A stretch of DNA of 62,467 nt, filler included, from Platydemus manokwari (lineage: Eukaryota), in assembly GCA_037951405.1 (NCBI GenBank). It is 6 parts of 6 records of this genome, joined end to end, with 100 filler letters (N's around TTAATTAATTAA, not from the genome) between each part and the next. Parts side by side here need not be neighbours in the genome. Positions count along the whole stretch, not along the records: positions 21,269 to 31,527 come from JBBMOY011153104.1; 5 more parts are not named here. One strand, written 5' to 3'. The notes under the pieces were generated by a model that saw only the letters and a program-made list of their open reading frames with translations, made no database searches and was not told where the DNA came from. Numbering within the stretch: position 1 is the first letter of the stretch; each line of letters starts with the position of its first letter. Shown here one piece after another: positions 21,269-27,600 of the stretch. The position numbers and the translations under genes are program-made.

Positions 21269-22388
21269 GACTTAACTTACAATCATTCAAGATCAGTTCC
21301 ATATTTCTCCATTAAACTTTGGGTTAAGTTATAGAAATAGTCCAACTTATTGTTAAAGTATTGTGCTAACTTCACATCCAACTTATTGACTTGTTTTTTG
21401 GCATCTTTTATTTCATTTTCGCTTAGGTATATTTCCTTATAGTTAGTATAACCACTTGAGTATATCCCCTATCTTGACCCTTATGTATAAACCTCATAAC
21501 ATTTTTTCCTTCTTCACTCATTTATACAGTTAGTGTTTCTTTCATTATCATTTCAGATGTTTCCCTATTACTGTCAGGTAGATAACTTTCCGAAAACTTT
21601 GTTTCTATGAATATTTTTCCATTTACTGCATGTAACTTTTCCTTTTTTGTTAATAAGCATTGGTATAGGTTAGCCTTATACATTATTAATGATGTTCCTG
21701 TGTCGCATATTTCTTTTCATATTCACAATTTATCCATGTAGTCATTTTCCTAGTCTGAGCATCAAATGTAGCTTGAAATTCTCTTAATTTTATGATATAA
21801 TTTCTTAATGCTACTACTTTTTCTAATGTCTTATTCCAAACCCTTACAGTAACTTCCTGAACCTCTCCATCCTGCAGATCCTATTTTTTGTCTCGTTATC
21901 CTTTTTTCTAATGTTATTGCATATCCGTGCGATTTGTAATATGTTCTTTTCTCAAATGCTTGTTTACATTTTTCCTCTGTTGGTATTTCTGGCATTAGTG
22001 CCCATGCCGGTTCTAATACCGTTGTATATGCTCCTGATGAACATGAGAAGTGAAATTTTAATTCCTGATACATTATTTCACATTACCTAGCTTTTTCAAA
22101 CAGAAATTCGGACTCTTGATACAAGTACATTTCATTAGCTATTGATTTTGTTAAATTTACAGGGTATGCTTCTGCAAATTTATCAATATTTAGCAATGAA
22201 TATTTTTGTCCCCATTGTGGCTTTCCACAATCATATCCATCAATTCCTGCATCAACTCCTCCTATTAATCCAACCAAGTACATTGTTAGCAACGTTTGAA
22301 CTATAATGGTAAACTTAGATTTTTGCTTAGATTGTTTTTCTGATAATTTTATTTCACTTTGCATTATGGGTTTTTCATTATCAGTCAT
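21269..22388 (-). pseudogene. Envelope glycoprotein, chuvirus G / herpes gB-like class III fusogen, N-terminal part
   Basis: Signal-like TIIVQTLLTMYLVGLIGGVDA, then GIDGYDCG..YSLLNID, YLYQ..*CEI, SCS, CKQA, CKG, KVVALRNYIIKLREFQATFD, INCEYEK.ICDTG, TNYKEIYL, DVKLAQYFNNKLDYFY..LILNDCKL. This matches the motif order I recall for chuvirus-type glycoproteins. Confidence 0.78.
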
Positions 22389-23564
22389 TTTTCTAATATT
22401 GACTGTATTAATTTAGGCCATCCTTGATGTTGATTAATTTCACTTTTAAATTCATTTGATATTAGTTCCGCTCCCTCTTCTCTGTTTGATATCTTATTAT
22501 TCATTAAATTCCTTGTTGTTTGCAAAGTCGTAATTATTCTTCCTCTTCATTTATTATACTAATTACTTCCTTAGCGGTTTCCTTATCAGATATTTTATTG
22601 CTTATTCGGTTTATTTCTTCTAGGTATTTACTTGTACAATGCACTAATGCCTTTACTTGCAATTTTTGATTTTTATCTAAGGCGCTGGCTTCGCCACTAA
22701 GTGCTTGTAGGTACTGTTTAATTTTCTTCTTTGCTTCTTATTTTCGGTTGAATTCTGTGCATGTATCTTATTTTTATCTAATGAGCGGATTTCGTCACTA
22801 AGTGCTTGTGCCTTATACTTGATTCTCCATTTTGCTTTTACTTCCTGGTCAGAATCTTTTTTGTTATTTTGATTTCCGAAACATGGATCATGATATTGTT
22901 ATTGTAAACATCCAATACAATTTCCTAACTCATTCTCTTGTTTTCTTATTTGCTTATATGTTTCTGGTGATTCTATTAACTTCATGAAATCTTTTCCGGA
23001 TGATTCTATTTCATCTTTTACTTCCTCTGTCTTCCTTTTCTTCTTTGATGTTTTTTTCTAATCATCTTTATTTTTATTACCCCCACTTATTTCTTCATCT
23101 ACTTTTTCATCCAAATCTACTGACCATTGTCTGTTAACTTTTCTTTCTTTGCTTTTTCTTCTACATTTAGCCATTTCTATTATTCTTGGCTCATTAATTT
23201 CTTCTTCCTTATTTTTCTCACATTTTATCATATTTATATCATTATATCCCCAACACACGTTGTAATTTGTATACCTTCAAGGTATTGTTCTAGGTATATT
23301 TGGTTTTGGTGCTATTATGTTAATTGTTACTACATTTATCTTCTTCTCTGAGAATACATTTTTCAGTTCTTCCTCCTCTATTAGGATTCGTTGTTTGTAT
23401 TTTATGATTATTTTATTCAATCCCCACTCTCTTCTATTTATATTCTGTTCTTGTATTTTTCTTTTTAGATGTTTTACTCCTTTCTTTTTCTTAATTAACT
23501 TATAGCCCCCTAGGTCTTATTGGTAACTATTTAACACTTCTATTTTTACTATGTACTTTTCTTC

Positions 23565-26110: not shown

Positions 26111-26274
26111 TCTCGTGTGAATGTCCAAATTCTCATTCGGAATGGTTTTTTTTTAACTCAGTATCTATCCTTATTATCTTTCCACAGTCTTATAATGCTA
26201 GTTCTTCTTCTTCACTTAATTTCCTTGCTTCTCGTGCTTGTAATTGTATTTCTCTCATGATTTCCCTAACTTCC

Positions 26275-27600
26275 TCAAAATTTTCTCTTTCTTCTAACTT
26301 CCGTATTTTTTCTATTTTTCCTTTGTCCACAACTACATTTCTTTATTGATGTATTTTCTTCTTCTTCACTTGAATTTATGTATGAATTTTTCCTTAATAC
26401 CTGCCTAATGTTTTCTACTTCATTTTCTCTTCTTTTATTTTCCTGTTTTTCATGTTGTTTATCATTCTTATCTTGTCTTATGTATTCCTTGCTATCCCTT
26501 TCATTCCTATATTCCATTCTTCTACTACAGTGACCCTTTTCCTTATGTCTTATTTCTTCTAATTTCTTAGCTAATTCTTCCTTTTCCTTAACCAATTTTC
26601 TCATTTCCTTTTGATATTCCAATTCCGAACTTCACCACATATTTTCTAATGTCTTTATTCCTGAGTCTAACTTTTTCTCTTTATTAATTTCTATTTCTCT
26701 TTTCTTTTCTCGTCTCTTTTCAAGTTCTTCTTCTTGTTCTTTTTCATATAATTCCCCAGTTATTTCCTCTATTCTTTTTCTTTTCATTATTTCATTATAT
26801 AACTCCTCTTGTTCTTTTATCTCTTTTTTAATCTCAGCCTTATATTTTACTACTGCTTCATCTTGCTTATTTTATTGTTCTTTTCTCAAACTACATGATG
26901 TAATCATATGTCCTGTTCTCTTAAAGTACTTGCATTGGACTTCACCATTACTATTAATCATATCTCTGGTGTAATTAAACATCTTTGGCCTATTGTTGTA
27001 ATTCACTGATCTTCCTACTGATCTTCCTAACTACAGTACTAATTGCCTTTCATTATTTTCTACATGTCCATTATTGTTGTTAAATTTAGACCTATCGTTA
27101 TTCCTTTGCTGATTTTGCCAATTGTTATTACTATTCTTACCATACGGACTTCTACTTCTACTATTTTGCCTATTATTGTAGTTATTGTTATTATTGTTGT
27201 TGTTAAGCTCTCTATTATTTCTATTCCTATCCCAAGGACTTCTACTTCTATTGTTTGATCTATCGTTATAATTGTTGTTCTTATTTTGATCAAATTTACT
27301 TTGCCTACTTCTATCATTATTTCGATTTTCAAGTCCTCTATTATCTAAATTTCCTCTAGTATTGAAATTATTCCAATTATCCCTATTAAATCCTCGTTGA
27401 CCATAACTATAATTATGATGACATCTATTCCTATCAAAGTAATTTCCATTATCGTATGTTCTGGATTGTTTATTGTTATCTTCCCTTATTTGGAATTGAG
27501 TTAGCACCTTATTTAACTGATCCCAAGTTACATTCATGTCAGGATTTTTATCATCCTCTTTAGTTACTAGATTCTTTTCAATTGGAGAAGGTGATGTTTT
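26275..27600 (-). pseudogene. gag C-terminal part: N/R-rich low-complexity region, degenerate zinc knuckle, long K/E coiled coil
   Basis: ORFs 27031-27537 and 26275-26622 share a frame; RSRSP repeats; CKYFKRTGHMITSC. Confidence 0.65.

Follow-up and report, generated by a model that had tools for sequence, protein, structure and literature searches.

The window, i.e., the whole stretch of 62,467 nucleotides analysed in this work, consists of six contigs of the Platydemus manokwari assembly GCA_037951405.1 joined end to end. One of these contigs (21269–31527) carries on its minus strand a run of sequences related to gag, to ubiquitin-like (UBL) domains and to an envelope glycoprotein (env), whose features are, from the upstream side to the contig end:

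27600–27770, no strand: 5' edge of the repeat, where depth drops to the level of the flank
27034–27657, minus: 3' part of gag, Asn/Arg-rich and of low complexity, with RSRS/RSP spacers, in a 208-aa ORF
26890–26970, minus: degenerate zinc knuckle of gag, its upstream context being the one usual in relatives (profile E 1.3e-7, 22.5 bits)
26136–26871, minus: predicted Lys/Glu-rich coiled coil, from the sequence and the stop map, with a frame change near 26340–26280
25932–26132, minus: UBL unit A (E 0.0013 and 10.3 bits with the UBL profile of the relatives, best control 0.8 bits)
25430–25856, minus: acidic Asn/Glu/Asp-rich linker, seen in the translation
24657–24893, minus: candidate UBL unit B, paralogue of E (B against E, z 16.1, 0 of 1,000 shuffles)
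24309–24578, minus: UBL unit C, paralogue of F (C against F, z 13.9, 0 of 1,000 shuffles, 34% identity)
23997–24248, minus: weak candidate for a UBL unit, D (0.9 bits with the UBL profile, at the level of the control)
23625–23867, minus: candidate UBL unit E, paralogue of B, with no Pfam ubiquitin match
23298–23564, minus: UBL unit F, with a predicted beta-grasp fold (relatives' UBL profile, E 0.045, above the reversed-sequence control)
22403–22632, minus: possible Bcl-2-like remnant, spread over two frames in an out-of-frame patch (best match in the window to the relatives' Bcl-2-like profile, E 0.3, 2.6 bits against 2.4 for the control)
22254–22310, minus: predicted internal signal peptide of env, the top Kyte-Doolittle 19-mer (1.85) of the frame 26441–21831
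21269–22289, minus: N-terminal half of env, a Monjiviricetes/chuvirus-like fusion glycoprotein (PF24664) with stops and frame changes, ending at the contig end
21169–21268, no strand: artificial spacer between joined contigs (N44, 12 nt, N44; five such spacers in the window), into which the element runs

The left edge of the gag-UBL-env stretch, position 21269, is thus the end of a contig, and env is halved there, a circumstance that the first-pass annotation left unweighed. A long ORF is evident in the stop map: of the minus-strand frames over 25856–22703, one is interrupted by 11 stops in its 1,051 codons, where the other two have 144 and 153 and 1,000 shuffles give a mean of 101 (minimum 70). 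From 25856 to 21834 this frame holds 11 stop-free stretches of at least 50 aa, seven of them of at least 79 aa. The earlier description of seven ORF fragments sharing one frame therefore stands as regards a long, decayed ORF, but not as regards the continuity of the frame: the patch 22700–22415 contains 15 stops in 95 codons before the same frame reopens at 22412–21834, so that reading exits the shared frame and then returns to it, and gag (27657–26278) lies in another frame, with more frame changes near 25930–25860 and within env. A direct repeat (22669–22736 and 22770–22837, 74% identity, 101 nt apart) is found where the out-of-frame patch starts. To the first pass several stops looked like single G>T changes (GAA>TAA), an origin that one copy leaves as no more than a possibility: GAA accounts for 90 of the 309 in-frame sense codons that are one step from TAA, and of the 624 places at which the copy differs from others, 414 show transitions. 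A reading under an alternative genetic code was ruled out, as all three types of stop occur at the breaks with frame changes beside them, and as host ORFs such as those for eIF5A and CDK11 read normally.

As for the host, the GC content of the window (21–39%) is that of an AT-rich eukaryotic genome, and the CDK11 encoded on another of its contigs groups with 14 flatworm sequences (support 97/93) in a 38-row tree in which its branch is long and no row is a triclad; this points to a flatworm host, probably a planarian.

The low-complexity gag tail has the composition and the position of that in the relatives P0018 and P0021–P0026, and the knuckle was recognized with a profile built from the knuckles of 10 relatives, whose best reversed-sequence control scored -1.3 bits. 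The coiled coil downstream may, by analogy, occupy the place of the Smc-like region of the planarian element Burro (PMC6431247). The relatives' capsid profile has no match in the contig, the region 27500–31527 holds no LTR-like repeat and matches only itself within the window, and with neither a capsid domain nor an LTR upstream, this copy is 5'-truncated. At the edge, the summed contig depth goes from 993 in the bin 27425–27766 to 55 in the next one. Three short Cys-rich segments ending in CxxDxCN, like exons of Ly6/three-finger domains, lie on the plus strand at 28000–29800, one of them with a weak Pfam three-finger match (E 0.013); they are likely host genes adjoining the element.

Between gag and env there are up to six UBL units, three of which are supported (A, C and F) and three are candidates. 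Unit A is also similar to the UBL segment of P0005 (E 0.008) and is followed by the acidic linker, linkers of like kind coming after the UBL in P0020 and P0021, while unit B, at 0.6 bits, does not exceed the control level of the UBL profile. For unit F, an AlphaFold2 model reached a pLDDT of 80, and its best Foldseek matches are ISG15 and ubiquitin with a TM of about 0.7; the fold is partly driven by the alignment, 12 of whose 14 rows are the relatives' UBLs, and those UBLs, one or two in each relative, were delimited by eye. AlphaFold2 on the UBL region as a single sequence was uninformative (pLDDT 30.7). Pairwise shuffles of the delimited units gave significance for two of the 15 pairs, unit D having no significant match to any other unit of the stretch, and no internal repeat emerged when the long frame was compared with itself by Blastp. 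Likewise, Pfam found no ubiquitin family in the six single candidates (only a Crinkler N-terminal match for unit A, E 0.06), a profile built from nothing but the six units of the window retrieved no ubiquitin from the PDB, and the ESM Atlas gave no usable match to the ORF 23568–24032. The distance from the knuckle to env is 1,544 codons in the window, versus 296–895 aa in 13 relatives, and the pairs B-C and E-F point to an expansion of the UBL region through internal duplication in the window's family. The Bcl-2-like match that comes next is not significant, and its position is the one seen in relatives.

The first-pass annotation had proposed an env released by an internal signal peptide, and such a peptide is indeed predicted: hydrophobicity along the frame peaks in a 19-mer that begins at 22310, immediately ahead of env, and the relatives have a signal peptide at the same place. 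The env piece matches PF24664 with an E of 1.3e-5, which is under the curated cut-off, and a profile of the env of 10 relatives with an E of 1e-39 over positions 8–337 of 642, down to 21322; as the profile stops at position 337, about half of env is missing past the contig end. A phmmer search with 21834–25115 against 1.84 billion representatives gave 13 matches, of which 12 lie on env (the best with an E of 1e-16 and 33% identity) and none spans the UBL region, the sole non-env match (P0014) being a short repeat; 11 of the 13 proteins match PF24664. On the strength of this family, env would be predicted to adopt the gB-type (class III) fold.

The identity of env to that of the relatives is 26–36%, and no branch of the env tree is longer than that of the present element. 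Nearest to it is P0002, an env fragment of 304 aa on a contig of 2.5 kb, which is silent on pol. No close full-length relative was found, the best env being at about 33%, and the supplements of PMC13524379 may list closer flatworm elements. A word-indexed search with env among proteins of 339–2,000 aa gave 0 matches among 217 candidates, which is weak evidence; the window's env found no loci in viral and metagenome contigs, nor did the relatives' env in viral contigs.

That no pol separates gag from env, as noted in the first pass, is confirmed. Pfam found no family in the six frames of 21270–27600, and the relatives' profiles for the protease (PR) and for reverse transcriptase (RT)-RNase H-integrase have no match in the contig 21269–31527, the same profiles matching gypsy fragments on other contigs of the window (13395–12149, 16455–16724 and 58058–57861). 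Concerning motifs, the minus-strand D[ST]G strings fall in the coiled coil (26667), in UBL unit A (25961) and inside env (21704), and the only YxDD-like string of the stretch is on the opposite strand. The string at 25961 was considered as a protease and discarded, as it lies within unit A, where the protease profile has no match.

The gypsy pieces elsewhere in the window deserve a brief description of their own. That at 11903–13395 (minus) is a decayed RNase H-integrase piece, and that at 14522–16968 (plus), also decayed, comprises a capsid-like match, an N-rich gag tail weakly similar to that of the element at 21269–27600 (tblastx E 3e-5) and an integrase fragment. In the last contig, a fragment of a retroviral-type aspartic protease (57861–58058, minus, E 4e-7) lies downstream of an N-rich stretch, and a 327-aa ORF (59222–60205, plus) has two helix-turn-helix segments of the CENP-B/transposase type. 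The ORF at 48922–49479 (minus), which has no Pfam match, resembles in its motifs a fragment of a non-LTR (LINE) reverse transcriptase.

Where pol should be sought is indicated by the relatives. A search with the env of P0006 among proteins of 1,570–4,997 aa, a length range that favours pol-bearing forms, returned 16 proteins, all with a protease after env and 12 with an RT. In the set of 25 relatives, from which P0008 and P0013 were excluded as too short, 14 have env, PR and RT, five have env and PR, and six end inside env or at its end; in all 14 RT-bearing relatives (including P0015 and L001), env, PR, RT, RNase H and integrase follow in one ORF. The locus L001 gives the same picture at the DNA level, with one ORF of 3,426 aa in which env spans 470–1109, RT stands at 2155 and integrase at 2691. 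A pol between gag and env in full-length relatives was part of the observation named in the first pass as contrary to its reading, and it is found in none of the 13 relatives in which a CCHC knuckle accompanies env: between the two, these proteins have neither a protease nor an RT domain, a DSG string of P0005 in this interval not being a Pfam protease. The spacing can be read from the YFNNK motif of env, found in 19 of the 25 relatives and located in the window 91 nt from the contig end. The first protease motif comes 1,137–1,866 nt past YFNNK in 17 relatives, and YxDD 2,430–6,273 nt past it in 12; since in relatives the protease begins more than 1 kb past the point that corresponds to the contig end, pol could not be on the contig.

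Some of these relatives have further peculiarities. P0015, P0005, P0026 and L001 (2–10282) contain several aspartic-protease-like domains per polyprotein, some after the integrase (six Pfam stretches in P0015), as well as ankyrin repeats, C2H2 fingers and further membrane segments; the published passages on these elements that we consulted hold no description of multiple proteases per polyprotein. Downstream of the polyprotein, L001 has a separate 496-aa ORF (10617–12107) that matches RNase_T, a family of DEDD exonucleases (E 1e-5), and may serve this element as an accessory gene. P0027 is a eukaryote-type env-PR-RT-integrase polyprotein filed under a Flavobacteriaceae MAG, likely a contamination of that bin.

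An arrangement of this kind is known from planarians, as the order gag-UBL-Bcl-2-env-pol is published for the giant Ty3/gypsy elements Burro and GYPSM1 (PMC6431247). With these, according to the parts of the description consulted, the stretch shares a gag with a CCHC knuckle, a coiled coil (Smc-like), a Ubi2/SUMO-like domain, perhaps the Bcl-2-like one, and an env in frame ahead of a pol that is predicted for the stretch, along with an env akin to fusion proteins of the mononegavirus type, a high copy number and an AT-rich, flatworm-like host. The stretch itself shows the CCHC knuckle (E 1.3e-7) and, between gag and env, the Ubi2/SUMO-like domain (units A and F). The two differ in that one Ubi2/SUMO-like motif is named for Burro in those passages, versus up to six UBL-like units here, and the likeness is to a published description, Burro being a giant of over 20 kb with an ORF near 5,000 aa and the stretch showing 6.4 kb that hold neither RT nor LTRs. 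MATH, BIR and ankyrin have no Pfam match in the stretch, a comparison limited by decay and truncation, and the ankyrin of relatives comes after env. In the relative P0022, Pfam recognizes ubiquitin (E 4e-5) as well as PF11976, which is also the family given for Burro (PMC6431247), and the Bcl-2-like family PF00452 appears below its cut-off in P0009, P0013 and P0020, a PDB sequence search with P0009 returning only chains of the Bcl-2 family. Decaying Burro fragments with stops and frameshifts are also on record, in one Dugesia species (PMC6431247); BURRO1 is described as transcribed and PIWI-controlled (PMC8532177), and Burro elements are counted among the obstacles to planarian genome assembly (PMC11410931).

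A second group is that of the GAG-ENV-POL errantiviruses with an HSV/gB-type env, reported from Platyhelminthes, Nematoda and Bryozoa (PMC13524379). They share env between gag and pol, in an arrangement reported for flatworms, and what the stretch shows of it is a gag followed, without an intervening pol, by an env of the Monjiviricetes/gB-like class; the difference is that ubiquitin-like domains have 0 occurrences in the main text of that paper. The order also agrees with that of P0018, P0020–P0026 and L001 (ENA/JGI), which run from the N/R-rich gag tail and the knuckle context through UBL, acidic linker and signal peptide to a PF24664 env, although with one or two UBLs and an env 26–36% identical.

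Taken together, we assign a probability of roughly 87% to the reading that the stretch is a dead, 5'-truncated, envelope-carrying retroelement, likely a Burro-like gag-env-pol Ty3/gypsy element, whose contig ends in env and whose pol likely lies beyond. Among the options offered by the first-pass annotation, that of a pol located 3' of env past the contig is hence the supported one, env being cut by the contig end and pol following env in 14 of 14 RT-bearing relatives. The copy is dead and makes no product, having stops and frame changes and lacking both the capsid domain and the LTR.

The family to which the copy belongs is repeated. Contigs of one public run, which may be the window's own source and are therefore not independent of it, were placed on the contig 21269–31527 (1,981 of them), and their summed depth is 254–5,540 over the element (19 bins) versus 11–55 over the flank (11 bins); a depth so far above the flank marks a high-copy family, although the depth itself is not a copy number.

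The high copy number would also fit a family that is pol-less and non-autonomous, keeping gag, the UBL array and env and being copied by an autonomous Burro-like helper; such a family, which the first pass had raised as a particle-forming satellite, also agrees with the distance of the window's env from all the pol-bearing relatives found and with the family's own pol being unseen. Against it, pol would be expected to begin over 1 kb beyond the contig end, so that its absence carries no information, and every one of the 19 relatives whose sequence goes well beyond env has a protease, 14 of them reaching RT, while completeness is shown for none of the six env-only proteins. We consider this reading unlikely, there being no positive evidence for a satellite, and place at the same low level its fuller version, in which the array of five or six UBLs would act as a decoy for ubiquitin/SUMO readers in an enveloped flatworm satellite of a Burro-like helper.

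A private deletion of pol from a copy with the usual gag-pol-env order is still less probable. It could be sought in the two places where the depth dips about tenfold, namely 22323–22570 (143–408 versus thousands on both sides) and 25373–25714, or in the out-of-frame patch 22700–22415; however, the depth in the dips is still about ten times that of the flank, and no pile-up of ends is listed for the run contigs along the element. Furthermore, divergent contigs bridge the first dip and link env to the upstream side, one joining 21996 to 22388 with 38 letters between, another, apparently in an 887-nt record, joining 22271 to 22544. A variable linker accounts for the dip better than a private deletion does, and with 13 of 13 relatives lacking pol at this place, the deletion envisaged in the first pass is unneeded. 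The least probable reading by our estimate, a chimera in which a separate UBL-repeat sequence sits between a gag and an env fragment that come from unrelated repeats, could draw on the lack of a phmmer match covering the UBL region and on a spacer far longer than those of relatives, but conflicts with the single strand and single frame over 1,051 codons, the purine skew that runs unbroken along the stretch, the high depth throughout and the UBLs that occupy the same position in relatives.

Returning to the Burro-like gag-env-pol reading, the relatives encode in one ORF gag, zinc knuckles, a coiled coil, one or more UBLs, often a Bcl-2-like domain, the signal peptide, env, one or more proteases, RT, RNase H and integrase, and the ancestral long polyprotein with an env freed by an internal signal peptide, as suggested in the first pass, holds for this stretch as it does for them. 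Polyproteins with internal signal peptides are generally known to enter the ER, to be cut there by signal peptidase, to return to the cytosol and to process themselves, and an intact member of the family may be pictured along the same lines. One RNA would give a single polyprotein. Guided by the internal signal peptide, the env ectodomain would enter the ER co-translationally, and the host signal peptidase would free env there; the C-terminal membrane anchor of env would then bring the chain back to the cytosol, and there the element's own protease would cut out the gag and pol products. The UBL units are devoid of a terminal di-glycine and so are likely unconjugated scaffolds or decoys for host ubiquitin/SUMO readers, and a Bcl-2-like domain beside them might delay cell death.

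Where a contig of a flatworm-like genome breaks off, finding gag and env with no pol between them is what one would expect, and with the domain order already published and the copy dead, the locus has little significance as found. Should the family prove pol-less, it would represent an enveloped non-autonomous element in a flatworm. The sole feature for which the literature searches turned up no description is the expanded UBL region, and if intact members of the family keep five or six UBLs, this would be a retroelement that amplifies a host-mimicking domain by internal duplication.
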